From the NCBI RefSeq assembly GCF_050920415.1, contig NZ_CP169309.1: a stretch of 64,000 nucleotides of DNA. The stretch is one strand, 5' to 3'. Position numbers and translations under genes: made by a program. The stretch is from Escherichia coli (GTDB taxonomy: Bacteria > Pseudomonadota > Gammaproteobacteria > Enterobacterales > Enterobacteriaceae). How positions within the stretch are numbered: position 1 is the stretch's first letter; the number at the start of each line of letters is the position of its first letter. Positions 5,056-61,473 of this stretch are shown here, piece by piece. A model generated the notes under the pieces. It had not been told where the DNA came from, made no database searches, and saw only the letters and a list, made by a program, of their open reading frames with translations.

Positions 5056-6741
5056 TTGAAGAAGGTTTGGCTTAACCGTTATCCCGCGGACGTTCCGACG
5101 GAGATCAACCCTGACCGTTATCAATCTCTGGTAGATATGTTTGAGCAGTCGGTCGCGCGCTACGCCGATCAACCCGCGTTTGTGAATATGGGGGAGGTGA
5201 TGACCTTCCGCAAACTGGAAGAACGCAGTCGCGCGTTTGCCGCTTATTTGCAACAAGGGTTGGGACTGAAGAAAGGCGATCGCGTTGCGTTGATGATGCC
5301 TAATTTATTGCAATATCCGGTGGCGCTGTTTGGCATTTTGCGTGCCGGGATGATTGTCGTAAACGTTAACCCGTTGTATACCCCGCGTGAACTTGAGCAT
5401 CAGCTTAACGATAGCGGCGCATCGGCGATTGTTATCGTGTCTAACTTTGCCCACACTCTGGAAAAAGTGGTTGATAAAACCGCCGTTCAGCACGTAATTC
5501 TGACCCGTATGGGCGATCAGCTATCTACGGCAAAAGGCACGGTAGTCAATTTCGTTGTTAAATACATCAAGCGTCTGGTGCCGAAATACCATCTGCCAGA
5601 TGCCATCTCATTTCGTAGCGCCCTGCACAACGGCTACCGGATGCAGTACGTCAAACCCGAACTGGTGCCGGAAGATTTAGCTTTCCTGCAATACACCGGC
5701 GGTACCACTGGTGTGGCGAAAGGCGCGATGCTGACTCACCGCAATATGCTGGCGAACCTGGAACAGGTTAACGCGACTTATGGGCCGCTGTTGCATCCGG
5801 GCAAAGAGCTGGTGGTGACGGCGCTGCCGCTGTATCACATTTTTGCACTGACCATTAACTGCCTGCTGTTTATTGAACTGGGTGGGCAGAACTTGCTTAT
5901 CACTAACCCGCGCGATATTCCGGGGTTGGTAAAAGAGTTAGCGAAATATCCGTTTACCGCGATAACCGGCGTTAACACCTTGTTCAATGCGTTGCTGAAC
6001 AATAAAGAGTTCCAGCAGCTGGATTTCTCCAGTCTGCATCTTTCTGCAGGCGGTGGTATGCCTGTTCAACAAGTGGTGGCTGAACGTTGGGTGAAACTGA
6101 CCGGACAGTATCTGCTGGAAGGTTATGGCCTGACCGAGTGTGCGCCGCTGGTCAGCGTTAACCCGTATGATATTGATTATCATAGTGGTAGCATCGGTTT
6201 GCCGGTGCCGTCGACGGAAGCCAAACTGGTGGATGATGATGATAACGAAGTACCACCGGGTCAACCGGGTGAGCTTTGTGTCAAAGGACCGCAGGTGATG
6301 CTGGGCTACTGGCAGCGTCCGGATGCCACTGATGAAATCATCAAAAACGGTTGGCTACACACTGGCGACATTGCCGTAATGGACGAAGAAGGTTTCTTAC
6401 GCATCGTTGATCGCAAAAAAGACATGATTCTGGTTTCCGGTTTTAACGTCTATCCCAACGAGATTGAAGATGTCGTCATGCAGCATCCTGGCGTACAGGA
6501 AGTCGCGGCTGTTGGCGTACCTTCCGGCTCAAGTGGTGAAGCGGTGAAAATCTTCGTTGTGAAAAAAGATCCATCGCTTACCGAAGAGTCACTGGTGACT
6601 TTTTGCCGCCGTCAGCTCACGGGCTACAAAGTACCGAAGCTGGTGGAGTTTCGTGATGAGTTACCGAAATCTAACGTCGGAAAAATTTTGCGACGAGAAT
6701 TACGTGACGAAGCGCGCGGCAAAGTGGACAATAAAGCCTGA
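5056..6741 (+). CDS. fadD: Long-chain fatty acyl-CoA synthetase FadD (561 aa)
   Basis: TTG start at 5056 ([13 protein letters not shown]...) gives the known 561 aa. AMP-binding motifs [18 protein letters not shown] and GYGLTE are present. The track ORF begins 22 codons too early. Confidence 0.95.
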
Positions 6742-6760
6742 GCGTTAAGTCAGTCGTCAG

Positions 6761-6786
6761 ACGCCGGTTAATCCGGCGTTTTTTTT
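6761..6786 (+). terminator. Rho-independent terminator of fadD
   Basis: ACGCCGG-TTAAT-CCGGCGT hairpin followed by T8. Confidence 0.85.
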
Positions 6787-6810
6787 GACGCCCACTAAAG
6801 AGAATACAAT

Positions 6811-7938
6811 TTGAATTACCAAATGATTACCACGGACGATGCGCTGGCTTCTTTGTGTGAAGCTGTCCGTGCCTTTCCGGCGATAGCCCTGGATACTGAA
6901 TTTGTTCGTACGCGCACCTATTACCCGCAGCTGGGTCTAATTCAACTTTTCGATGGCGAGCATCTGGCGCTAATTGATCCTCTCGTGATCACCGACTGGT
7001 CACCGCTGAAAGCGATCCTGCGCGATCCGTCCATCACAAAATTTCTCCATGCAGGCAGTGAAGATCTGGAAGTGTTCCTCAATGTCTTTGGCGAATTACC
7101 ACAACCCCTGATTGACACGCAAATCCTTGCTGCCTTCTGCGGACGCCCGATGTCATGGGGTTTTGCTTCCATGGTGGAAGAGTATTCCGGCGTTACGCTG
7201 GACAAGAGTGAATCGCGCACCGACTGGCTGGCCAGACCGCTGACTGAACGTCAGTGTGAATACGCAGCGGCGGATGTCTGGTATCTGTTACCGATCACCG
7301 CAAAGCTTATGGTAGAAACGGAGGCCTCCGGCTGGCTACCTGCGGCGCTGGATGAATGCCGCCTGATGCAAATGCGTCGTCAGGAAGTCGTTGCGCCGGA
7401 AGATGCCTGGCGTGATATCACCAATGCCTGGCAGTTACGCACACGCCAACTGGCCTGTCTGCAACTGTTAGCCGATTGGCGACTGCGTAAGGCGCGGGAG
7501 CGCGATCTGGCGGTGAACTTTGTCGTGCGTGAAGAGCATTTGTGGTCGGTAGCGCGTTATATGCCGGGAAGTTTAGGCGAACTGGACAGCCTGGGCTTAT
7601 CCGGTAGCGAAATCCGCTTTCACGGTAAAACGCTGCTGGCGCTGGTGGAAAAAGCGCAGACATTGCCGGAAGAGGCCTTACCGCAGCCGATGCTTAACCT
7701 GATGGACATGCCGGGTTATCGTAAAGCGTTTAAAGCGATTAAGTCGCTGATTACTGACGTGAGCGAAACACACAAGATCAGCGTCGAATTGCTGGCATCG
7801 CGTCGGCAAATCAACCAGCTGCTGAACTGGCACTGGAAACTGAAACCGCAGAACAATTTGCCGGAGCTGATTTCCGGCTGGCGTGGTGAGCTGATGGCGG
7901 AAGCATTACACAATTTATTGCAGGAATATCCACAGTAA
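6811..7938 (+). CDS. rnd: Ribonuclease D
   Basis: TTG start (a known feature of rnd). Has a DEDD exonuclease motif (ALDTEF) and an HRDC-type C-terminus. 375 aa. Confidence 0.95.
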   Translation: MNYQMITTDDALASLCEAVRAFPAIALDTEFVRTRTYYPQLGLIQLFDGEHLALIDPLVITDWSPLKAILRDPSITKFLHAGSEDLEVFLNVFGELPQPLIDTQILAAFCGRPMSWGFASMVEEYSGVTLDKSESRTDWLARPLTERQCEYAAADVWYLLPITAKLMVETEASGWLPAALDECRLMQMRRQEVVAPEDAWRDITNAWQLRTRQLACLQLLADWRLRKARERDLAVNFVVREEHLWSVARYMPGSLGELDSLGLSGSEIRFHGKTLLALVEKAQTLPEEALPQPMLNLMDMPGYRKAFKAIKSLITDVSETHKISVELLASRRQINQLLNWHWKLKPQNNLPELISGWRGELMAEALHNLLQEYPQ

Positions 7939-16285: not shown

Positions 16286-17311
16286 TCAGGAATGTAGCAC
16301 TGAATGCGCGACAAAAGGTGTTTTCTGTTTGTGTTTTTTCTCCTGATACATCGCGATATCGGCAGCATGCAGGGCGCTGTCTGCATCGGTCGTTTCAGGA
16401 TCGACTTCTACTATGCCAAGACTGGCACCAGGATAATACAAATCAACATCACCTAAGTGATATTCTCCGCGTATTTGCTGTTGAATACGTTCTCGCAGCG
16501 ATGGAATATCCGCATTCTCATTGTTCAGTGAAACAACCAAAAACTCATCACCGCCGAGACGACCAATAACTTCGCCATTTTGCTGGAGCGTATTAAGGCG
16601 CTCGCCAACCTGAATAAGAAACAGATCGCCACTATTATGACCAAAACGATCATTGATTAATTTGAAGTTATCCAGATCGATAAATGCGATCATTATCTTA
16701 TGGTTAAGATGCCGGGCGAGGGAAAACAGCGTCGTCAGATTTTCAAAAATCGCCCGCCGATTTGGTAACCCGGTTAACGAGTCGGTATACGATTGCGCAA
16801 TCAGCGCGGCATTGGCTTCGCGCAGCTGTTCTACCAGCGCCTCTTTTTGAATATATTGTGCAATCAGTCCGGCGAATAACTGCAAAACCTGTTCCGCGCG
16901 TTCACTCCACTGGCGCTTCTCACTGCTGGCGGCGCAAAGCGTGCCATAGAATGATCCATCCGGTAAGTGAATTGGCGTGCTCAGAAATGTGGTGATGCCA
17001 AGATTGCGTGCCGCAATACAGTCGCCCCAACGGTCGGGGACTTCATCGCTGAAAAAGCAGTTTTCATCAATGGCGCGTTTGCATAACGAGTAATCCCACG
17101 AGACGGTAAAATTCTCCGGGATGTGCATTTTCTGGCTGTTACGGGCAAACATTATATGCTGCAGGCGCGCTTCGACATCCACTTTGGTCAGGTAGGTTGA
17201 TTCCATATCAGTGACCATTTCCAGCATCTCCAGAAGCTGTCGGACCAGACTTTCCAGTGACTGTTCTTTGGCAAGGGATTGCGAGACGCGGGCGATAATC
17301 TGATCTGACAC
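16286..17311 (-). CDS. dgcP: Diguanylate cyclase DgcP (GAF-GGDEF, 341 aa)
   Basis: Intact active site RLGGDEFLVV. GTG start at 17311 (VSDQIIARV) gives the remembered 341 aa. Confidence 0.9.
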   Translation of the reverse strand: MSDQIIARVSQSLAKEQSLESLVRQLLEMLEMVTDMESTYLTKVDVEARLQHIMFARNSQKMHIPENFTVSWDYSLCKRAIDENCFFSDEVPDRWGDCIAARNLGITTFLSTPIHLPDGSFYGTLCAASSEKRQWSERAEQVLQLFAGLIAQYIQKEALVEQLREANAALIAQSYTDSLTGLPNRRAIFENLTTLFSLARHLNHKIMIAFIDLDNFKLINDRFGHNSGDLFLIQVGERLNTLQQNGEVIGRLGGDEFLVVSLNNENADIPSLRERIQQQIRGEYHLGDVDLYYPGASLGIVEVDPETTDADSALHAADIAMYQEKKHKQKTPFVAHSVLHS

Positions 17312-52477: not shown

Positions 52478-52750
52478 GTGAGTCGAGCATTGTTCGCCCT
52501 AGCATTGGCATTTCCATTCATTGCACTGGCTAACCCGCATTATCGTCCGGACGTGGAGGTAAACGTACCGCCTGAAGTATTCAGTTCAGGCGGGCAGTCA
52601 GCGCAGCCCTGTACTCAGTGCTGCGTCTATCAGGATCAAAACTATTCTGAAGGGGCGGTAATTAAAGCCGAAGGAATACTGCTGCAATGCCAGCGGGATG
52701 ACAAAACTCTTAGCACTAATCCGCTGGTCTGGCGGCGCGTAAAGCCATAA
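52478..52750 (+). CDS. ynjH: DUF1496 secreted small protein YnjH
   Basis: GTG start. Signal peptide MSRALFALALAFPFIALA. 90 aa. Confidence 0.85.
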   Translation: MSRALFALALAFPFIALANPHYRPDVEVNVPPEVFSSGGQSAQPCTQCCVYQDQNYSEGAVIKAEGILLQCQRDDKTLSTNPLVWRRVKP

Positions 52751-53123
52751 ACGCCTCTAATAGTGGAATGTCAGCAGGGGCCAGCGGATATTGCAGCGCC
52801 TCTTCAGGTGAGCACCAGACCAGCGCCTGATGTTCATGTGCCTGTAACGTCCCGTGGAAGTCGGGTACGTGCCAGGCATGAAGATGGATAATCCGCCCCG
52901 ACACTTCTCGCTGATGGCTGGCAACATACTCACCCACAGTTGCTTCGATGCCCAATTCTTCGCGTAACTCACGCACCAGCGCCTGCCGCTGGCTTTCATC
53001 CGGCTCGACTTTACCACCGGCAAACTCCCATAATCCCGCCTGATCGCTATGGGCGGGGCGTTGAGCGAGTAAAATTTTGCCATCACGTTCGATGATGGCG
53101 GCAACAACTTCAATCATATTCAT
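52716..53123 (-). CDS. nudG: Nudix CTP/5-methyl-dCTP pyrophosphohydrolase NudG
   Basis: Nudix box GGKVEPDESQRQALVRELREELGI. 135 aa. Confidence 0.93.
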   Translation of the reverse strand: MNMIEVVAAIIERDGKILLAQRPAHSDQAGLWEFAGGKVEPDESQRQALVRELREELGIEATVGEYVASHQREVSGRIIHLHAWHVPDFHGTLQAHEHQALVWCSPEEALQYPLAPADIPLLEAFMALRAARPAD

Positions 53124-53209
53124 AAATTACACACGGGCAGATAAGCGAAAAATGCCATAATATCCGCACTGTTGCTCAATCAGAAAGGCTTTATATTTAA
53201 GGAGTGCCT

Positions 53210-53830
53210 GTGTTAGACCGCCATCTTCATCCCCGAATTAAACCTTTGTTGCATCAGTGTGTGAAGGTTCTGGATAAACCTGGTATCACGCCAGATGGTT
53301 TAACGTTAGTGGGGTTTGCTATCGGCGTGTTGGCATTGCCGTTTCTGGCACTGAGCTGGTATCTGGCGGCGCTGATTGCCATTTTACTAAACAGATTGCT
53401 TGATGGTCTGGACGGCGCGCTGGCACGGCGTCGAGGCCTCACCGACGCAGGCGGCTTTCTCGATATCTCGTTGGATTTCCTTTTTTACGCGCTGGTGCCT
53501 TTTGGGTTTATCCTCGCCGCACCGGAGCAAAACGCGCTGGCAGGCGGCTGGCTGCTGTTTGCGTTTATCGGCACGGGCAGCAGTTTTCTCGCTTTTGCTG
53601 CGCTGGCGGCGAAACATCAGATTGATAATCCCGGTTATGCGCATAAATCGTTTTATTATCTGGGCGGGTTAACCGAAGGCAGCGAGACGATTTTGCTGTT
53701 TGTTCTGAGTTGTCTCTTGCCGGCTTATTTTCCGTGGTTTGCGTGGATATTTGGCGCGCTGTGCTGGATGACGACCTTTACGCGGGTGTGGAGTGGATAT
53801 CTGACGCTGAAGTCGCTCCAGCGTCAGTAG
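53210..53830 (+). CDS. ynjF: CDP-alcohol phosphatidyltransferase-family membrane protein YnjF (206 aa)
   Basis: Signature DGLDGALARRRGLTDAGGFLDISLD, i.e. D-G-x2-A-R-x8-G-x3-D-x3-D. The second GTG is chosen as the start. Confidence 0.88.
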   Translation: MLDRHLHPRIKPLLHQCVKVLDKPGITPDGLTLVGFAIGVLALPFLALSWYLAALIAILLNRLLDGLDGALARRRGLTDAGGFLDISLDFLFYALVPFGFILAAPEQNALAGGWLLFAFIGTGSSFLAFAALAAKHQIDNPGYAHKSFYYLGGLTEGSETILLFVLSCLLPAYFPWFAWIFGALCWMTTFTRVWSGYLTLKSLQRQ

Positions 53831-53838
53831 TTGCAATG

Positions 53839-55146
53839 TTATTTGCTGCTGTCCGGGCCGCGCTCACCGGTTGCTACGGGATTTTTCGGATCGCTGCTCC
53901 ATTCGTACCAGCCGCCGTCGTAAACGGAGACGTTATTCCAGCCCATTGCTCGTGCGTACATAAAGGTTTCGGACGCGCGCCAGCCGGTGCCGCAGTAGAA
54001 TGAAACTTGCTGATCTGGTTTGATATTCCATGCTTTCCACATAGCGGCAATATCATCGGCGCTACGCATGGTGCCATCCGGGTTATGGAAATCCTCCATA
54101 TGCGTCGAGTCGCTACCAGCGTGTCCCCAACGGGCTCCGGCTATTTCACCTTTTGGCTTAATATAGCTGTAACCACTGGTCGTACCGATAAATTCTGGCC
54201 ACGAACGAATGCTCACCAGCGATGCATCCTGGCGATGCAGCAGCCCACGGGCCTGTTCCATATCAAGCATCAACTGCGGTTGCGCCGGGATCTTCACGCC
54301 GAAATCCGGTTCAGCTTTCACTTTCGGTGGCGTTCCGCGCTCAACAGGCAGTCCCGCGTCGGACCAGGTTTGCCAGCCGCCGTCCAGCAGGCGCACATCT
54401 TTCACCCCTGCATAGAGCATAATCTGTGCTACACGCGCTGCTGCGTATACATCACGACCATATAGAATCACCGTGGTGTCATGACGAATGCCATGTTTTG
54501 CCAGCATCGCTTTCAGTTGTTCATCAGAGACTTTATTCCACAGCGGTTCGCTTTCCACTTCATTGGTATCGATGTAATCCGCGCCGGGAATATGGCTGAT
54601 AAGGTAAAGCTTAGGAGCGCCCCAGGCCGCTTCAATGACTTTCCAGTCACCGGCAGGTTTCGCTGTAACGTCTTTTCCTTGTTGCAGGTCATGCAGCCAT
54701 TGCGGATAAACCAGCTGCTCAAAGTGCGGCAGTTTTTGCAGACGGGAAGGTTCGCTTAGCGCGTCACTCAAAATGGAGATATGCGTAAAACCTGCTTTTT
54801 GCAGTCGCGTTTTGACGGCGTCGACATCTTTGTCATTACCGTACAGCGCCACCGGAGCGTCGGTTTTCAGGTTATGTTGCTTGATCCACGCGTTGAGCTG
54901 TTCGGTGCTCATTTTGTCGAGCCAGCTAGCAGAGAGGTTTAAGGCGGCAGGTTCATGACCAGAAGGGCCATTTAAGGTTTGTGGCCAGCCGTTATAAAAC
55001 GCGCTGGGGCGAGTATCTATCGCTTTGCCATTTTGTTGTTGAAGCTGGTCAAGTGTAAGAGGCTTCGCCAGTTCAGCGGCCCACGAAGAAGCGCAAGCCA
55101 GCCCTAAAGCCATTGCCAGCGCGGTCATTTGAGAAACACGTTTCAT
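53839..55146 (-). CDS. ynjE: Periplasmic triple-rhodanese sulfurtransferase YnjE (435 aa)
   Basis: Signal peptide ...ACASSWA. Active-site loop CGTGWRAS lies in the last rhodanese domain. Confidence 0.92.
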   Translation of the reverse strand: MKRVSQMTALAMALGLACASSWAAELAKPLTLDQLQQQNGKAIDTRPSAFYNGWPQTLNGPSGHEPAALNLSASWLDKMSTEQLNAWIKQHNLKTDAPVALYGNDKDVDAVKTRLQKAGFTHISILSDALSEPSRLQKLPHFEQLVYPQWLHDLQQGKDVTAKPAGDWKVIEAAWGAPKLYLISHIPGADYIDTNEVESEPLWNKVSDEQLKAMLAKHGIRHDTTVILYGRDVYAAARVAQIMLYAGVKDVRLLDGGWQTWSDAGLPVERGTPPKVKAEPDFGVKIPAQPQLMLDMEQARGLLHRQDASLVSIRSWPEFIGTTSGYSYIKPKGEIAGARWGHAGSDSTHMEDFHNPDGTMRSADDIAAMWKAWNIKPDQQVSFYCGTGWRASETFMYARAMGWNNVSVYDGGWYEWSSDPKNPVATGERGPDSSK

Positions 55147-55212
55147 CGAAAATCCCGACATTGTAGTTTTGAGTGCGCCATTCTGAACTGACGCATTGGG
55201 AAAAACTTTGCG

Positions 55213-55866
55213 TTATCGCAGTTTGTTGTAATTTTCTGACCACTGCGCCATATCCAGAACAGAACTATCAGCAGGAACATCCTGGATATCGTGCGTTACC
55301 TGAACGACGGGGATCGCCATGGCGCGAATTTCGCTGAACACCCACTGGCGAAAATTATCGCGCAGAGCCACATCAAGACGGCTGAACGGCTCATCCAGGA
55401 GTAACGCTCTTGGCTGGGCGAGAAGGGCGCGTAGCAGAGCAACGCGCGCTCGCTGACCGCCAGACAAAGTGGCAGGATCCTGATGGAAAGCTCCGTCAAG
55501 GCCTGAACGCTCAAGTGCATCATTCACGGCATTACGTCGGGCATTCCCCTTAAGTGTCTCCGGTAGCGCCAGCAGTAAATTTTGCCCGACGCTGAACTGG
55601 TCAAATAACAGTGCATCCTGGAAAAGAATGCCAATCTGACGCTGTGCGGTGGGTTGCATGTCAATCCGTTGCTCATTGAGCCATAGCTCACCTGCACAAG
55701 AAAACTGTCCGGCCAGCGCACCAATCATCCATGAAAACAGTGTAGATTTTCCACAGCCAGACGGCCCCATTAACGTGACAATGTCACCTTTATCCACCGT
55801 AAAGTTAACGTTTGTCAGCAAGCGGCTTTCTGGTAAACGTAGCGAAACATTTTTCACGCAGAGCAT
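55213..55866 (-). CDS. ynjD: ABC transporter ATPase YnjD (217 aa)
   Basis: Walker A GPSGCGKST, signature LSGGQRARV, Walker B LLLDEP. The start overlaps the ynjC stop (TAATG). Confidence 0.92.
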   Translation of the reverse strand: MLCVKNVSLRLPESRLLTNVNFTVDKGDIVTLMGPSGCGKSTLFSWMIGALAGQFSCAGELWLNEQRIDMQPTAQRQIGILFQDALLFDQFSVGQNLLLALPETLKGNARRNAVNDALERSGLDGAFHQDPATLSGGQRARVALLRALLAQPRALLLDEPFSRLDVALRDNFRQWVFSEIRAMAIPVVQVTHDIQDVPADSSVLDMAQWSENYNKLR

Positions 55867-57401
55867 TAGCGGAGTCCTTGTCTGACATAACCTACCCATT
55901 TTGCGACTAACGCGGTCAGGGCAAAAATAATAAGCGGCAACAGTAGTTGCCATAAAGCCTGGGCGGCGAGAATGCCGTTGCTGCCGCCGCTGCTTAATGC
56001 CACCGCTTCAGTGGTGAGCGTCGGAAAACGCCCCGCGCCCAGCCACAGAGTCGGCATATACTGCGCAATACTGACTGAAAATCCTACCGCGAAGGCAATC
56101 AGCGCAGGGCGCAACATGAGTGGGCATTTCACGTAAAAGAAGATTTTGGCCCGCGACCAGCCCAGTGTTTGCGCAATCAAAATTAACCGTGAATCAATGC
56201 GCTGCCAGGCGGGTTGCAGGATAAACAGCATCCACGGCATTACCCACAGCAGATGCCCCCAGACCACCGCTGTCCAGCTCCCATCTATGTTCAGCCATAG
56301 CGCCAGCATGTACTGGCCCGCCACCAGCGGCAGAGCGGGTAATAAAATGGGCAACCAGAGCCACAACTGGCGACGCTTTGCCCCCCATTCCAGCCACAGC
56401 AGTAACAGGACCAAAGCGATAAACGTCGCCACCAGCCCCATTGTCAGGCTGTTGATGAGCGCTTCACTATTGATCGTCGACTGATCCGCGAGGATCGCCA
56501 GCAGAACCACACACAGCACACCGGTTAAGGGTAAAAAACTCGCCAGTGTATTGCCGGGTAATAAAGGCGTGGCGGGCTTACGAACGCCATCTACGCGGGG
56601 AATGGTGCACTGCCAGGCGCGCCAAAGTAAATAGCCCAGCAAAACGTAGACGGCGAGTAACAGCATCAGCAGCAGGCTGGCGAGTGCGCCTTTCATCTGT
56701 TGATCGGCGTCGCCTTGGGTTAACCACTGCCAGCTAATTACCGCCAGCGTCGGTGGATTACCCGGCCCGAGAATAATTGCCACATCCACGACCGACAACG
56801 ACCATGCCACAATAGCCAGCATCGCCATTGCCAGTGCAGGCGCGACGGAGGGCAACAACAACCAGTTCAGACATTGCCAGCGGCTGTAGCCCAGCGAATC
56901 CAGTACAATAACCTGCTGCAACAGCCGTTTCTCGCTCAATACTGCCGCTAAGATCCACAGCAGAAATGCGCTTTCTTTCACCGCCAGGGTAAGGCCCAGC
57001 CCAATACCCAATTTATCCATCGGCGGAGTGAGAAAAGGAAAAACCTGATAAACCAGGCCACCTTCAGCAAACAGCAACAGGGCGCTGGTGGCAAAAGCCA
57101 CATGGGGAATGGCGAGCAGCCACGGCAGACGGGCGCACATACGCTGCCATTTCGGCCCAGGCCACAGCGCCATAATTACCAGCAGGGCAATCGTCAATGC
57201 GCCGAGCGCCGCGATGGTTGTTGACACCAGTGTTGCCAGTAAGGCCTGCGGTAGCTGCGGATCGGCAAATAACGCCTGCCAGTGTGCCAACGACAAAGCA
57301 GGCGATATCAGCGTGAGAGCTGCCGGGATCAGCGGTGCATAAATCACCGCCACCATCGCCCACAGCAACAAGATTAATGCGTACCGTAACGGTGTAGCCA
57401 T
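55866..57401 (-). CDS. ynjC: ABC transporter fused double permease YnjC (511 aa)
   Basis: About 12 TM segments with a duplicated permease module, as in ThiP/FbpB. Start trimmed to MATPLRYALILLLW. Confidence 0.9.
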   Translation of the reverse strand: MATPLRYALILLLWAMVAVIYAPLIPAALTLISPALSLAHWQALFADPQLPQALLATLVSTTIAALGALTIALLVIMALWPGPKWQRMCARLPWLLAIPHVAFATSALLLFAEGGLVYQVFPFLTPPMDKLGIGLGLTLAVKESAFLLWILAAVLSEKRLLQQVIVLDSLGYSRWQCLNWLLLPSVAPALAMAMLAIVAWSLSVVDVAIILGPGNPPTLAVISWQWLTQGDADQQMKGALASLLLMLLLAVYVLLGYLLWRAWQCTIPRVDGVRKPATPLLPGNTLASFLPLTGVLCVVLLAILADQSTINSEALINSLTMGLVATFIALVLLLLWLEWGAKRRQLWLWLPILLPALPLVAGQYMLALWLNIDGSWTAVVWGHLLWVMPWMLFILQPAWQRIDSRLILIAQTLGWSRAKIFFYVKCPLMLRPALIAFAVGFSVSIAQYMPTLWLGAGRFPTLTTEAVALSSGGSNGILAAQALWQLLLPLIIFALTALVAKWVGYVRQGLR

Positions 57402-58543
57402 TCTTGTTCCAGCGCATTTACCCAACCTGCGTGCGGTTCAGCCAGTACCGGCGGCAGATCCTGCGGCATTCTTGATTGCAATATTTCATGCTGCCCGTCA
57501 GGCAGTTTTTGCGGATCGAGAACCGATGGATCGCCCCAGACAGCAGGGTCTGCTTTACGTAGCTGTGCATCAGGTGAGAGCAGGAAATTGGCAACCACCT
57601 TCGCCGCAGCACTGGCATTCGCGTTAGCAGGAATGGTGACAAAATGCACGTTGCCAATCATCCCCTCGTTAAAACCAAAACTGTAACTGCTTGCCGGCAA
57701 ATCGCCACTGGCGATTTTTTGCTGGGCATGTGCAGGATTAAAGGTCAGCGACAGGCGCAATGTGCCAGCTTTCAGCAGAGCATCCATCCGCGCGGGCGAA
57801 GGTGGGAAATCCTTTCCTTCGCGCCATAAATACGGATGCAGCGCATCAAGATATTGCCACAAGGGCGCAGTGATACGGGCGAAAGTCGCATCGTTCGGCG
57901 CTTCTTTTAATGCTGCGGGATCTGGCGTCAGCATAATCAGTAACTGTTCAAGAAATGCGGTGCCAGTAAAGTCTGGCGGGCGCGGATAGGTAACCGTGCC
58001 AGGATTGGCTGTAGCAAATTCCAGTAAGGCTTGCGGTGTTTGTGGTGGCTGTGGCGTAACATCGCGGCGGGCGATAAACGTCAGTTGAGCGCCGCCCCAC
58101 GGCGATTCTGCGCCTTCGACAGGTACAGAAAAATCTTCCCGTACCGGCAGTTGTGTATCGACATAACGCCAGTTTGGCAGAGTCTCAGCCCAGCCGGTTT
58201 GCAGTAAATTGGCCTCTTTTAAAGTGCGGAAGTTTTCGCCGTTCACCCAGAGCAGATCCACCGAACCGCCTGTCTCGCGCCCGGCTGCGGCTTCGGTCTG
58301 AATGCGCTTCACCGCGTCTGCGGCATCCGCCAGGCGGACAATCTTCAGGTTTATATCATAATGGGTTTTCATCTCGCCGCTAACCCAGTCGAGATAGCGG
58401 TTAATTGCGGTATCGCCGCCCCAGGCGTTAAACCAGACGGTTTGCCCTTTGGCCTCATTTTTAACTTCCTGCCAGTCACTGGCATGTGTTGCCAGAGAAA
58501 ACAGCGATAACAATCCCAGCAACCACCCACAATGGCGCATCAT
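57374..58543 (-). CDS. ynjB: ABC transporter periplasmic substrate-binding protein YnjB
   Basis: Signal peptide MMRHCGWLLGLLSLFSLATHA. SBP family. Its 3' end overlaps the ynjC start by 28 nt. Confidence 0.9.
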   Translation of the reverse strand: MMRHCGWLLGLLSLFSLATHASDWQEVKNEAKGQTVWFNAWGGDTAINRYLDWVSGEMKTHYDINLKIVRLADAADAVKRIQTEAAAGRETGGSVDLLWVNGENFRTLKEANLLQTGWAETLPNWRYVDTQLPVREDFSVPVEGAESPWGGAQLTFIARRDVTPQPPQTPQALLEFATANPGTVTYPRPPDFTGTAFLEQLLIMLTPDPAALKEAPNDATFARITAPLWQYLDALHPYLWREGKDFPPSPARMDALLKAGTLRLSLTFNPAHAQQKIASGDLPASSYSFGFNEGMIGNVHFVTIPANANASAAAKVVANFLLSPDAQLRKADPAVWGDPSVLDPQKLPDGQHEILQSRMPQDLPPVLAEPHAGWVNALEQEWLHRYGTH

Positions 58544-58549
58544 CTCTCC

Positions 58550-59098
58550 TTAAGAACGTTTTTCAGGAATACGGCACAGCCCCTGAGCGGGAATGTCCAT
58601 GGCAGAATTAAAACGGGCTGACAGATTTTGCAGGCCGATCAATGCCGTCAGTTCGGTGAGCGCCTGGGCGTCAAAATGCGCAGCCAGTCGGGTACGCAGG
58701 GCATCATCGACCGTTGGCGGCGTTACGCTGGCGGCTTCGGCGTACTCCAGCGCCAGCCGTTCTTCATCGCTAAAGAGCGGGCTTTGCCGCCAGTCAGCCA
58801 CTGCCAGCAACTTATCGGTGCTGCCGGTACGCTCGGCGACTTTCATACTGGTGATATCCACGCAAAACTCACACAGGCACATTTGCGCAATGCGCGCGCT
58901 GACAAGCGATCGCACTACCGGATCGAGCGGTGAGCGTTTACGCTCCAGCCAACCGACAAACATCGACACCAGATAAAAGATAAACGGGATCCGTCCCCAC
59001 CAGCGAATTGGACTTAGCACCTCGCCGTAATGGCGACGATGCAGCCACGCCTGCGGACGTAAACTTAAAGGAATTTTGCTAAGCGGTGGTAAACCCAT
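58550..59098 (-). CDS. ynjA: AhpD-like/carboxymuconolactone-decarboxylase-family protein YnjA
   Basis: 182 aa with a CxxC motif (CEFCVD). The ATG overlaps the ydjZ stop (TGATG). Confidence 0.88.
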   Translation of the reverse strand: MGLPPLSKIPLSLRPQAWLHRRHYGEVLSPIRWWGRIPFIFYLVSMFVGWLERKRSPLDPVVRSLVSARIAQMCLCEFCVDITSMKVAERTGSTDKLLAVADWRQSPLFSDEERLALEYAEAASVTPPTVDDALRTRLAAHFDAQALTELTALIGLQNLSARFNSAMDIPAQGLCRIPEKRS

Positions 59099-59802
59099 CA
59101 GGCATTCCTCTTCTGGCGTTCAAGCCATATTTTTTTCGCCATAAAAATCACCACGGTCAGGGCAAACAGAATAAACAGTCCGGTGACAAACCAGAAGGTA
59201 CCGCCCGTTAACATACTGCCCGCCCAGGAATAAACAATAGTCGCCGGTAACTGACCAAGCCCGGTGGCGATAAAAAACGAGCGAAAACGTATTGACGTCA
59301 AACCGGCAGCATAGCTGATTGGATCGAAAGGGACAAAAGGCAATAACCGGCATACCAGGATAGTGTGTTTGCCGTAGCGAGTGAAAAAGCCGTCCATACT
59401 GTCAAGCATGGTTTTACCGGTTAATTTTTCCACCACTTCGCGGCCCATTACTCTGGCGATAAAAAAGCATAGCGCCGCGCCCGCCATAGAACTGGTCCAC
59501 GACAGCAAGCCGCCCCAGAACGCGCCAAACAGCGACGCATTGGCAAAGGTGATCAAAAATGCAGGCAGCGGTGCAGCAATGGCCTGTAAGATCATTAAAA
59601 AGAATGAGACCAGTGCAGCCTGCGTGCCGTAAGACGCAATAAAGCGTTCAATGCCTTGTTGATCCACGGCGGCAAAGGCTACAAGGCTGCTGTTAATAAA
59701 CTCATAAACGCCGGGAATCAGCGCCCATGCGAGCAGCGCAACAATTAACAAGATGATAATGACGCCACGCCAGAGCCACATTTTACGGTTTTTATCTCTC
59801 AT
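59098..59802 (-). CDS. ydjZ: TVP38/TMEM64 (DedA-related) membrane protein YdjZ
   Basis: 234 aa, multi-TM, with family motifs FFIARVMGRE and RLLPFVPFD. Confidence 0.9.
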   Translation of the reverse strand: MRDKNRKMWLWRGVIIILLIVALLAWALIPGVYEFINSSLVAFAAVDQQGIERFIASYGTQAALVSFFLMILQAIAAPLPAFLITFANASLFGAFWGGLLSWTSSMAGAALCFFIARVMGREVVEKLTGKTMLDSMDGFFTRYGKHTILVCRLLPFVPFDPISYAAGLTSIRFRSFFIATGLGQLPATIVYSWAGSMLTGGTFWFVTGLFILFALTVVIFMAKKIWLERQKRNA

Positions 59803-59805
59803 CTT

Positions 59806-60510
59806 TCATCTTTGTTGTTCGGTTAAAGAGGTTTTATCAGAAGTGGTCAGTGCCACTTGTTTGTAACGGGCGTAGCATTTAGCAAGCTGAATAAGAATAA
59901 ACAGTATTAGCCCTGCCAGACAAAGTTTGAAAATAAATGATAATGTTATGCCTTCAGTAACAAGGTCGCTGGCCATAAAAGTATAAATAAAGATCCCCGG
60001 CAGAGTCGTGAATGCCGAAATAAAGGTATATGGCCAAAAGGCAATGGCGGTTAATCCGTAGGCGTAATTTTGAATATTGTAAGGAAATAGCGGAATTAAG
60101 CGGGTAAGAATAAGAAAATCGATACCGTTACGTGCAATCCCTTTCTCAATAGACTGAAAGACGGTGGTATCCCCAACATATTTCAGCACCAGTTCTCGCC
60201 CCATCCAGCGAGCAATCAAAAAGGAAACCGACGAAGCGAGCGTTGCTGCAACTAACGAAAGCAGAGTCCCCAAGAATGGACCAAAAATAATGCCACTGCC
60301 AATGACCAGGACACTACCGGGCAGCAGCAGAAGAGTGGCAATAACAAATAACAGAATATAAAGGCTGTAACCGAAAATACCACTCTGGCGAATAAGTGCC
60401 TGCAAGTGAGGAAGATCGCTAATGAAATTGAATATGCCTGAAGCATAAACAAGATAAATTGCCAGAGCAAAAGTCAGACTACCAACAACGAACTTACACT
60501 CAGCTTTCAT
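59806..60510 (-). CDS. ydjX: TVP38/TMEM64-family membrane protein (YdjX-like paralogue)
   Basis: 234 aa. Shares motifs FLIARWMGRE and RLIPLFPYN with YdjZ. Hand-counted lines give about 33-45% GC. The stop lies 3 nt before the ydjZ ATG. Confidence 0.8.
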   Translation of the reverse strand: MKAECKFVVGSLTFALAIYLVYASGIFNFISDLPHLQALIRQSGIFGYSLYILLFVIATLLLLPGSVLVIGSGIIFGPFLGTLLSLVAATLASSVSFLIARWMGRELVLKYVGDTTVFQSIEKGIARNGIDFLILTRLIPLFPYNIQNYAYGLTAIAFWPYTFISAFTTLPGIFIYTFMASDLVTEGITLSFIFKLCLAGLILFILIQLAKCYARYKQVALTTSDKTSLTEQQR

Positions 60511-60630
60511 CGTGGAGATTTCCTATATCAAGCCTTGATAATAGAGAAGTGAAAAACGCGATGACGGTATAACAAACCTAAGCTGGTCACAAATCCTTAC
60601 TGCCAGTTTCTTGATTATCCTCAAGAATCG

Positions 60631-60659
60631 GCCTCCTGACCTGGAGGATGTCAGGAGGC
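60631..60659 (-). terminator. Hairpin downstream of xthA
   Basis: 10-bp stem GCCTCCTGAC / GTCAGGAGGC, 8 nt after the xthA stop. The U tract is weak. Confidence 0.55.
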
Positions 60660-60666
60660 TGCGTCA

Positions 60667-61473
60667 TTAGCGGCGGAAGGTCGCCCACACAGGCGCGTGA
60701 TCGGACGGTTTTTCCATGCTGCGGATTTCATAGTCGATGCCGGTTTCTACGCAACAGTCTGCCAGCGGTTGGCTGGCGAGCAGCAGGTCGATACGCAGAC
60801 CACGGTTATCGTCAAAACCTTTTGAGCGGTAATCAAACCATGAGAAACGATCTGCTGTTTCCGGATTCGCATGGCGGAAGGTATCCACCAGCCCCCAACT
60901 TATCAGCCTGTCCATCCATTCACGTTCTTCAGGCAGGAAAGAACATTTACCAGTACGCAGCCAGCGTTTGCGGTTCTCTTCGCCAATGCCGATATCCAGG
61001 TCGGTGGGGCTGATATTCATATCGCCCATAATCAGCACCGGATTTTCACGCTTGAGTTCGGTTTCCAAATAATTTTGCAGATTCTGATAAAACTGCGCCT
61101 TCGCCGGGAATTTTATCGGATGGTCGCGGCTTTCACCCTGCGGGAAGTAACCGTTGATCACGGTGACATTGCCCAGCGGCGAGGGGATTTCCGCCATAAT
61201 AATTCGCCGCTGCGCCTCTTCGCCGTCGTCAGGGAAGCCGCGACGCACGGCAATCGGCGTCTCTTTGGTCAGCAGCGCCACGCCATAATGGCCTTTCTGC
61301 CCGTGATAAAACACGTTGTAGCCGAGCTTCGCCACCTCTTCGAGCGGAAACATATCGTCATGAACTTTTGTCTCCTGCAGGCCAATCACATCCGGTTGGT
61401 GCTTTTCGACGATGGCTTCAAGCTGGTGAGGTCTGGCGCGCAGGCCGTTGATATTAAAAGAGACAAATTTCAT
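60667..61473 (-). CDS. xthA: Exodeoxyribonuclease III (268 aa)
   Basis: [14 protein letters not shown]... ExoIII/AP endonuclease family. Confidence 0.96.

Follow-up and report, generated by a model that had tools for sequence, protein, structure and literature searches.

The stretch of Escherichia coli DNA analysed here (64,000 nucleotides of contig NZ_CP169309.1, assembly GCF_050920415.1; hereafter the window) carries between nudG and xthA eight intact genes that run from ynjF to a ydjX-like gene (53210-60510). They are annotated y-genes of Escherichia, and both the locus and the corresponding K-12 operon are already known. The transporter at its centre, YnjBCD, is still named an "uncharacterized transport system" in the literature, and the literature that we searched contains no functional study or informative phenotype for ynjF, ynjB or ynjBCD, no function for YnjB, YnjC, YnjD or YnjF, and no mention of a linkage of the transporter to YnjF or to VTT-domain proteins. 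Here we report that the importer genes and ynjF are found side by side, and in places fused, in several bacterial phyla, and that the eight genes very probably constitute a single functional system, the Escherichia version of a membrane system that spans multiple phyla.

Gene content of the locus

Read along the minus strand, the cluster opens with the ydjX-like gene (59806-60510), a divergent allele encoding a VTT/TVP38 membrane protein (a DedA of the COG0398 type), and continues with ydjZ (59098-59802), which encodes a second VTT/TVP38 membrane protein, ynjA (58550-59098) for an AhpD/CMD-like protein with a CxCxxC motif, ynjB (57374-58540, or to 58543 with an alternative ATG) for the periplasmic substrate-binding protein of an ATP-binding cassette (ABC) importer, ynjC (55866-57401) for a fused double permease and ynjD (55213-55866) for the ABC ATPase. 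The junctions from ydjX to ynjD measure +3, -1, +6 (+9 with the PGAP start), -28 and -1 nt, so that 3 nt separate ydjX from ydjZ, ydjZ and ynjA share 1 nt, and ynjC shares 28 nt with ynjB and 1 nt with ynjD. A spacing of 66 nt separates ynjD from ynjE (53839-55146), the gene of an exported triple-rhodanese sulfurtransferase, and converging on ynjE from the plus strand is ynjF (53210-53830), which encodes a membrane enzyme of the CDP-alcohol phosphatidyltransferase family. The convergent stop codons of ynjE and ynjF lie 8 nt apart and leave no room for separate terminators (53830-53839); in K-12 this pair figures in a published list of overlapping-transcript 'excludons' (PMC12288877). The coordinates of the eight genes are those of the list of open reading frames (ORFs) and of the RefSeq annotation of NZ_CP169399.1. 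The gene order, strands and junction sizes given in the initial annotation agree with both ORF calling and that RefSeq annotation, and its domain calls are backed by Pfam and NCBIfam for every gene.

ABC systems that combine a binding protein with BPD_transp_1 permeases are importers, and YnjBCD has this composition: YnjC matches PF00528, YnjD matches PF00005 (103 bits), and YnjB falls squarely into its own family (NF008633, 556 bits against a cut-off of 203; also COG4134), whose members in Proteobacteria, Firmicutes and Fusobacteria score between 430 and 556 bits. The YnjB sequence shows a signal peptide, and the mature protein has no cysteine at all. The AlphaFold2 model of YnjB (pLDDT 94.8) finds its Foldseek neighbours amongst cluster-D substrate-binding proteins (PhnS, PotD, FutA, AfuA and TbpA; 11-17% identity, TM-scores 0.54-0.67), and since these are generic cluster-D binders with unrelated ligands we infer no ligand from them. 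YnjB has no PDB sequence match at E <= 0.01, the solved TbpA, PotD, FbpA and PhnS included, and no NCBIfam equivalog match to thiamine (ThiB/TbpA), polyamine (PotD/F) or 2-aminoethylphosphonate (PhnS) binders. The cluster-D importers ThiBPQ, PotABCD, PhnSTUV, FbpABC and AfuABC share with YnjBCD the fold class of the binding protein, the single ATPase and the two permease domains, the latter fused in YnjC as they are in ThiP and FbpB, but they differ in that YnjB has no match to their binding proteins at the sequence level. The best profile hidden Markov model (HMM) matches of YnjD and YnjC are PhnT2 and PhnU2, ThiQ and CysA, all far under the family cut-offs. Trp, Asp, Glu, Asn and Gln are prominent among the conserved residues of YnjB; taken together with the polyol phosphates used by relatives of YnjF, this weakly suggests a sugar-, polyol- or amine-like ligand, which is a lead and not a result. 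One database entry (P0002; ENA, 574 aa, 10 member sequences) is E. coli-like, 96% identical to YnjB, and contains CMD (YnjA) and substrate-binding domains; it is a read-through or fused ynjA-ynjB gene call.

YnjF scores 42.5 bits on PF01066 against a Pfam cut-off of 22. Members of this family work at the cytoplasmic face of the membrane, where a hydroxyl receives a phospho-alcohol from a CDP-linked donor. The motif of the protein in the window is complete (D65-x2-D68-G-x2-A72-R73-x7-G81-x3-D85-x3-D89), and D65, D68, G69, A72, R73, G81, D85 and D89 are invariant in the 16 selected YnjF orthologues and in the total of 46; by score and motif YnjF belongs to the CDP-alcohol phosphatidyltransferase family, and we predict that it catalyses a transfer from a CDP-linked donor to an alcohol that releases cytidine monophosphate (CMP). 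HMM and PDB-profile matches place it closest to phosphatidyltransferases of the inositol-phosphate type, and it shares with the phosphatidylinositol-phosphate (PIP)/archaetidylinositol-phosphate and DIPP synthases (PDB 6h53, 5d92, 4mnd, 4o6m) the fold family and the D-x2-D-G-x2-A-R...G-x3-D-x3-D motif. In contrast to these enzymes, YnjF remains under the equivalog cut-offs for PIP/archaetidylinositol-phosphate synthase (NF040950, 63 bits, or 97 for an Ilyobacter orthologue, against 180; NF045883, 36.5-64 against 170), has a family signature of its own (FIGTGSSFLAFA, KSFYYLGGLTExTET), lacks an inositol-phosphate synthase in its context and alone is linked to an ABC importer. Nor is it a phosphatidylcholine synthase (Pcs), with 19 bits on NF045888 against a cut-off of 400. 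Two cysteines, C168 and C185, had looked like a further conserved feature of YnjF and were dropped from consideration, both being replaced, as judged by eye, in a fusion of YnjF to YnjB described below.

The YdjX-like protein and YdjZ score 87.9 and 86.5 bits on PF09335 (cut-off 33.9). Both share superfamily and reentrant-loop architecture with the undecaprenyl phosphate (UndP) flippases of the UptA/DedA type (COG0586), but YdjX is not matched by the UptA equivalog, and YdjZ reaches a mere 35.7 of the 250 bits that its cut-off requires. The VTT domain is common to YdjX/YdjZ and to TMEM41B, VMP1 and Tvp38, and published phylogeny and structure prediction group COG0398 DedAs of the YdjZ type with the eukaryotic scramblases and apart from the UndP flippases; they lack the charged residues needed for UndP transport, or transport driven by the proton-motive force (PMF), and appear scramblase-like (PMC10127716). 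In the literature, high-level complementation of UndP recycling in B. subtilis was achieved by only one of eight E. coli paralogues, DedA itself.

The two remaining proteins are cysteine-based. YnjA (PF02627, 36.5 bits against 23) retains C74-x-C76-E-F-C79; its best NCBIfam match, under that family's cut-off, is NF053654 'YciW-related (seleno)protein' (101 bits), and its PDB relatives are 2ijc, 7xw1, AhpD 6k40 and Bmp8 6ohi. YnjE comprises three PF00581 stretches (117.6 bits), has the six-residue active-site loop C385-G-T-G-W-R, and begins with a signal peptide (MKRVSQMTALAMALGLACASSWA); a solved structure of the K-12 protein is cited in PMC10215317.

Conservation of the importer and YnjF across phyla

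A search of 1.84 billion cluster representatives with YnjB returned 1522 relatives. Gene neighbourhoods were taken from two scans, one seeded with a ten-sequence YnjB alignment and run over one genome per species for 185,579 species (10-kb flanks), the other seeded with an alignment of 16 YnjF orthologues and run over 241 million metagenome records; each yielded its best 80 loci, and the co-location frequencies below are thus not unbiased estimates. Loci were read by tblastn and ORF clustering, and a YnjB locus was treated as testable where ynjD and at least 700 bp downstream of it were present. Contigs from other phyla were looked up with their precomputed Pfam matches.

The E. coli layout was found in 17/17 Enterobacteriaceae-type loci of the YnjB scan, and either this or the Citrobacter layout in all 56 enteric-type loci of the YnjF scan; in Citrobacter, Enterobacter, Cedecea, Buttiauxella, Scandinavium and Atlantibacter a YnjA-like gene stands directly upstream of ynjF and on its strand. 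The remaining 63 loci of the YnjB scan follow the order ynjB-ynjC-ynjD-ynjF on one strand and stem from Comamonadaceae and other Burkholderiales, Thiotrichales, Vibrio, Salinivibrio, Aeromonas, Marinobacterium, Desulfobulbales, SAR324 and several Alphaproteobacteria; ynjF comes directly after ynjD, on the same strand, in 29 of the 43 that are testable. Viewed from YnjF, ynjD stands immediately upstream on the same strand in all 20 testable non-enteric loci (56-62% identity to YnjF). In the two scans together 51 of 52 non-enteric loci have 73 nt or less between ynjD and ynjF, and in 33 the genes overlap, typically by 8 nt (the median), because the stop codon of ynjD lies inside the conserved ATG-yTT-GAy start of ynjF; the two genes are translationally coupled. 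A mirror-tree comparison over 29 non-enteric loci gave a correlation of r = 0.89 between YnjB and YnjF, matched by none of 2000 Mantel permutations and of the same order as the values among the subunits of the transporter itself (0.93 for YnjB-YnjC and 0.75 for YnjB-YnjD); shared species phylogeny feeds such correlations, which makes this one supporting evidence and not proof.

Translational coupling gives way to outright fusion in a set of Firmicutes-like proteins in which YnjF is joined to YnjB (P0199, P0271 and P0280-P0283; at least 6 independent contigs, 65-100% identity among them). At its N-terminus P0199 is homologous to YnjF over the full length of the latter (34% identity, residues 1-192), with the same MLD-x-H start and an intact motif, and a signal-anchor segment after this part would put the binding domain outside the membrane, so that the fusion is topologically sound. 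YnjB is fused to other enzymes as well: to an ICMT/PEMT-like membrane methyltransferase in P0194, a fusion type represented by nine sequences, and to a GT2 glycosyltransferase in P0130.

The same gene set reappears in other phyla, where the counterpart of ynjC is split into two permease genes in Firmicutes and Fusobacteria. One Logan contig (L164) has two VTT genes, a C_GCAxxG_C_C protein, YnjF::YnjB, two permeases and an ATPase, with a convergent single-domain rhodanese; another (L166) has VTT, C_GCAxxG_C_C, YnjF::YnjB and two permeases. In Ilyobacter polytropus (Fusobacteria; L173) a large Fer4/Pyr_redox_2/CCG protein and a rhodanese::VTT fusion precede YnjB, two permeases, the ATPase and YnjF. 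Bacillus pinisoli (L174) has YnjB, two permeases, the ATPase, VTT, YnjF and a pyridine-nucleotide-disulfide reductase, followed by a Crp/Fnr-type regulator, glutaredoxin and DsrE, and a metagenome-assembled genome (MAG) of Selenomonadales (L175) has a CCG protein, VTT, YnjF, YnjB, two permeases and the ATPase, with a convergent 453-aa rhodanese. The binding proteins of the last three loci score 430-468 bits on the YnjB model (cut-off 203). In the Selenomonadales locus the VTT protein and YnjF are 33% and 30% identical to YdjX (E 1e-40) and YnjF of the window, and the rhodanese, at 39% identity to YnjE over 451 residues (E 3e-103), is its true orthologue and has an export signal of its own, as YnjE does. 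In Clostridium tagluense (L171) the order is YdjY, VTT, YnjB, two permeases and ATPase, with a second VTT-YdjY pair nearby.

Amongst non-enteric Proteobacteria the VTT gene that adjoins ynjBCDF nearly always encodes a fusion of VTT to a flavoprotein, a pyridine-nucleotide-disulfide reductase (716-734 aa, with a CxxxxC redox centre); about 25 loci have this fusion, either after ynjF or before ynjB, and in Aeromonas-type loci (L064, L157) a YnjA-like gene lies upstream of it. VTT has thus been fused to a sulfur or disulfide enzyme twice, to a disulfide reductase and to a rhodanese. Which enzyme is present varies, and the recurrent member of the set is some Cys- or flavin-based sulfur/disulfide enzyme, be it a rhodanese, a disulfide reductase, an AhpD-like protein, a C_GCAxxG_C_C protein or a CCG protein. 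Across the 160 proteobacterial and metagenomic loci, rhodanese and YdjY homologues occurred in enteric-type loci only, and TusA, YedE and C_GCAxxG_C_C proteins in none.

In some lineages other enzymes stand in for YnjF. Crassaminicella thermophila, Thermotalea metallivorans and Alkalithermobacter have YnjB (518 bits), two permeases and an ATPase followed by a TIGR04283 GT2 enzyme, a TIGR04282 CofC-like enzyme and an APH-family kinase, the two transferases above their cut-offs (247 bits against 182 and 192 against 134), and a divergent nucleoside hydrolase lies upstream in all three. In Halomonas (L067), one of the 14 testable loci that lack ynjF, TIGR04283 follows ynjD in its place, whilst in Brachymonas (L039) a TIGR04283/TIGR04282 fusion and then a nucleoside hydrolase stand upstream of ynjBCDF and VTT::reductase; both are above cut-off. 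NCBI names TIGR04282 and TIGR04283 "arsenosugar biosynthesis glycosyltransferase". This ArsS-associated pair thus occupies or shares the position of YnjF next to ynjBCD in several Clostridia and some Proteobacteria; it differs from YnjF in that neither the window nor any of the Enterobacteriaceae loci examined carries it, and its function is itself inferred. The importer appears to be repeatedly coupled to enzymes predicted to conjugate a small alcohol or sugar, the choice of enzyme varying.

By these comparisons the arrangement is not a chance adjacency but one that recurs across phyla, and its core is the YnjBCD importer coupled to YnjF. The initial annotation had tied ynjF and ynjE to the operon by domain content and adjacency. 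For ynjF the tie is borne out by the neighbourhood analysis, since the gene follows ynjD, is fused to YnjB and adjoins the transporter in Fusobacteria, Bacilli and Negativicutes. For ynjE the outcome is divided: none of the 87 non-enteric proteobacterial and metagenomic loci has the gene, yet a full-length orthologue sits beside the Selenomonadales cluster and other rhodaneses recur nearby. The functional linkage as a whole is strongly supported by the comparative data, which turn what had been a vague idea into a concrete, testable proposal.

Two further sets of neighbours were set aside. The flanking ORF clusters conserved in Comamonadaceae and Alphaproteobacteria are housekeeping synteny (ftsY, M16 peptidases, rsmD, coaD, hrpB, MCP, bacterioferritin, SDR). 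In a Burkholderiales MAG, egtD and egtB (TIGR03438, 374 bits; TIGR03440, 573 bits; L021 7394-9579) lie directly upstream of ynjB, with a glutathione-reductase-like gene before them and VTT::reductase after ynjD; this is a single locus and was not used as evidence.

A proposed route from import to lipid flipping, and its alternatives

In the mechanism that we propose, YnjB would capture a small polar hydroxylated solute in the periplasm and YnjCD would import it, the direction of flow thus being inward. At the cytoplasmic face YnjF would join the solute, or a close derivative of it, to CDP-diacylglycerol as the presumed donor, giving a minor phospholipid and CMP, which lipid the COG0398-type VTT proteins YdjX and YdjZ, relatives of TMEM41B and VMP1, would move between the leaflets. 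The head group would carry or acquire redox-active sulfur, or another chalcogen or metalloid, and Cys-based partners would act on it: in E. coli the cytoplasmic YnjA and the exported rhodanese YnjE, elsewhere a flavoprotein disulfide reductase or rhodanese fused to VTT, a C_GCAxxG_C_C protein or a CCG protein. The sulfur chemistry is suggested by the fusion of redox partners to VTT, which makes it probable that a thiol, disulfide, persulfide or similar centre is present in the molecule transported. The E. coli operon would be turned on anaerobically by FNR. Judged from sequence and gene context, this combination of import, phosphatidyl transfer, flipping and sulfur-redox chemistry has in our view an even chance of being correct as stated. 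A more specific form of it, which we regard as unlikely, has the system make and flip a phospholipid of a hitherto undescribed class, whose imported sugar- or polyol-like head group bears redox-active S, Se or As; candidates would be a 5-deoxy-5-X-ribosyl compound or a thiol-alcohol, akin to arsenosugar phospholipids, and the lipid would serve as a membrane-anchored chalcogen carrier, attended by the disulfide reductase or AhpD-like protein on the inside and by YnjE and YdjY on the outside.

The closest functional analogue is found in rhizobia and pseudomonads, where choline taken up by an ABC system (e.g. ChoXWV) is condensed directly with CDP-diacylglycerol by the Pcs pathway to yield a phospholipid. 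Here too a binding-protein-dependent ABC importer for an exogenous alcohol is paired with an enzyme of the CDP-alcohol phosphatidyltransferase family. The ynj system differs in that YnjF is not Pcs, the YnjB family is unrelated to choline-binding proteins, and translational coupling or fusion ties the importer genes to the synthase gene, with VTT and Cys-redox proteins encoded alongside. For the coupling of such an enzyme to an importer, to a scramblase-type protein and to sulfur-redox proteins we are aware of no described counterpart; the novelty of the present work is this neighbourhood result. We know of no bacterial COG0398 protein for which a lipid substrate has been shown. In the published survey of the COG0398 family the commonest fusion partner is a pyridine-nucleotide-disulfide oxidoreductase, the very partner that stands beside ynjBCDF here, whereas the survey ties the subfamily to aerobic metabolism, in contrast to the FNR-activated E. 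coli operon, and does not mention an association with YnjF or YnjBCD (PMC10127716).

If the proposal is correct, eight E. coli genes that have no assigned function, roughly one in ten of the "y-ome" transport and lipid genes still left in the region, would collapse into one pathway, conserved from Proteobacteria to Firmicutes and Fusobacteria. It would include the first binding-protein-dependent importer that is genetically, and perhaps physically, welded to a phospholipid head-group synthase, and it would provide a defined lipid substrate for bacterial COG0398/TVP38 relatives of human TMEM41B and VMP1. It would likewise explain why YnjE, a rhodanese without a good substrate, is exported and why DedA-type proteins are so frequently fused to disulfide reductases.

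Several points weigh against this proposal. To our knowledge no extra phospholipid has been reported in E. coli. The neighbourhoods come from the best 80 loci of each scan, and amongst the testable non-enteric YnjB loci 14 of 43, mostly from Alphaproteobacteria, have no adjoining ynjF, several YnjB genes being orphans. PDB sequence search and Foldseek yield no ligand class for YnjB. Some lineages couple the transporter to the TIGR04283/TIGR04282 pair or to an ICMT/PEMT-like fusion instead of YnjF, so that the product need not be a phosphatidyl compound everywhere. In enterobacteria ynjF lies on the opposite strand with its own promoter, and the K-12 ynjE-ynjF excludon (PMC12288877) could lead to anti-correlated expression. 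Purified YnjE has almost no thiosulfate:glutathione activity (PMC10215317), and its EcoCyc name in K-12, molybdopterin synthase sulfurtransferase, denotes a cytoplasmic role.

Four other explanations deserve consideration. The first two we rate alike, as improbable. In one, the system is a carrier cycle: YnjF would load a head group that the cell has made or scavenged, the VTT proteins would flip it, and YnjE, YdjY or others would use the head group or its sulfane sulfur in the periplasm, after which the released alcohol would be recaptured by YnjB and re-imported, making the importer a recycling arm and no nutrient pump. The tight translational coupling of importer and lipid enzyme even in free-living aquatic bacteria would suit such a cycle, as would the distribution of the proteins, with YnjE, YnjB and YdjY extracytoplasmic and YnjA and the reductase cytoplasmic, the YdjY-VTT pairs of Clostridium tagluense, and the fact that in the fusions found redox partners are joined to VTT and not to the importer. 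However, no head-group biosynthetic genes were seen in the clusters, and the idea is purely inferential, the present data being unable to separate it from simple salvage.

In the other, likewise doubtful, the importer would bring in a 5'-modified nucleoside or a ribose- or polyol-type compound containing S, Se or As, to be processed, where these enzymes are present, by the nucleoside hydrolase, the kinase, the CofC-like nucleotidyltransferase and the GT2 enzyme (TIGR04282 and TIGR04283), with YnjF then making a phosphatidyl conjugate, by analogy with arsenosugar phospholipids. The clostridial sets of TIGR04283, TIGR04282, APH kinase and nucleoside hydrolase beside the YnjB importer speak for this possibility, together with the YedE-TusA genes of Crassaminicella and Alkalithermobacter, the Halomonas and Brachymonas loci, the GT2::YnjB fusion (P0130) and the polyol-phosphate transferases that are the nearest HMMs of YnjF. 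Against it, the 'arsenosugar' names of the two families derive from co-occurrence with ArsS and not from assays, neither arsS nor arsM was seen in any locus examined, E. coli has none of the extra enzymes, and mature YnjB is free of cysteine.

That two separate functions merely share their regulation is in our estimation distinctly improbable. VTT and its redox partner would then form a small-molecule transporter with a processing enzyme (for e.g. selenite, thiosulfate or polysulfide) and YnjBCD-YnjF would have a lipid or nutrient function unrelated to it, in keeping with the absence of VTT from roughly half of the non-enteric ynjBCDF loci (within the available DNA), with the YedE/TusA-type genes beside YnjB in Clostridia, and with a DedA protein that a reference cited in PMC10127716 links to selenite uptake. 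Yet in Bacillus pinisoli VTT separates the ATPase gene from ynjF, in the Selenomonadales locus it separates the CCG gene from ynjF, the COG0398 DedAs are scramblase-like and lack the charged residues of PMF-driven transporters, and the co-location recurs over four phyla.

An ordinary importer of thiamine, polyamine, phosphonate or iron beside unrelated genes, with YnjE engaged in cytoplasmic sulfur transfer to the molybdenum cofactor and YnjF and YdjX/YdjZ in housekeeping, is scarcely credible: it accords with the names 'putative thiamine' or 'spermidine/putrescine' binding protein given to YnjB in some sources, with the molybdopterin synthase label of K-12 YnjE and with the PhnT2, PhnU2, ThiQ and CysA matches of YnjD and YnjC, but those scores are all far below the cut-offs, YnjB has no detectable sequence similarity to solved TbpA, PotD, FbpA or PhnS, YnjE and its Selenomonadales orthologue carry export signals, and chance adjacency cannot account for an operon structure shared across phyla, for the fusions or for co-evolution with YnjF, VTT and rhodanese, so that the comparative data have largely refuted it already.

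Promoter, haplotype and neighbouring genes

An FNR-type box with one mismatch to TTGAT-N4-ATCAA (TTGAGGATAATCAA on the coding strand) lies upstream of ydjX at 60611-60624 on the minus strand, and the box and its flanking promoter region are conserved with K-12, where the box reads TTGAGAAAAATCAA. Chromatin immunoprecipitation (ChIP) and expression data for FNR in K-12 identify ydjXYZ-ynjABCD as an FNR-bound and FNR-activated operon with a site at -60.5 (PMC3688515); for the present strain the box is a prediction, the occupancy data being from K-12 only. Over the whole window, TTGAT-N4-ATCAA with up to two mismatches occurs 52 times against 37.9 expected, a count that 0 of 100 shuffles reach. 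A consensus promoter scan performed no better than shuffled sequence (6 matches against 7.1 expected), and terminator-like hairpins were in excess yet did not coincide with gene ends; neither was used. A GC-rich hairpin (cagcctcctgac...gtcaggaggc; 60629-60660) adjoins the xthA stop and lies a short way upstream of the FNR box; it is probably the xthA terminator, though a clear T-run is lacking.

The region 53000-61000, which is Escherichia chromosome, matches NZ_CP169399.1 ('E. coli' MFDS1022581) at 100% identity but 5419 of 5424 other complete E. coli genomes at just 90-95%, which indicates that the window derives from a divergent Escherichia lineage. In K-12, and in 5353 of 5426 complete E. 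coli genomes, ydjY lies between ydjX and ydjZ; it is absent from this window (59802-60700), an absence that the initial annotation had not mentioned. The ydjX gene and its promoter region are 75% identical to K-12 at the DNA level, and the sequence from ydjZ onward is 93% identical. The same minority haplotype without ydjY is found in NZ_CP061764.1 and in a metagenome contig (L095). Amongst the proteobacterial loci YdjY is confined to Escherichia, yet it belongs to the cross-phylum gene set: in the C. tagluense locus YdjY-domain genes (PF27149) are paired with VTT at 6520-7927 and 16428-17236, once directly upstream of ynjB.

Genes of the YedE/Sulf_transp type are linked to the uptake of thiosulfate or selenium. 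Upstream of the clostridial importers, YedE-TusA-YedE genes were found in Crassaminicella and Alkalithermobacter; the arrangement in two Clostridia is a split YedE/Sulf_transp gene, with a TusA-like gene between its parts, immediately upstream of ynjB (L167 5507-6984; L170 6485-7945).

On the far side of ynjF and divergent from it lies nudG (52716-53123, minus strand; CTP pyrophosphohydrolase). It adjoins the cluster in every Enterobacteriaceae locus and in no non-enteric one, and is therefore treated as synteny only. The plus-strand gene ynjH converges on nudG with an overlap of 35 nt (52716-52750), and the ynjH-nudG pair likewise appears in the published excludon list (PMC12288877).

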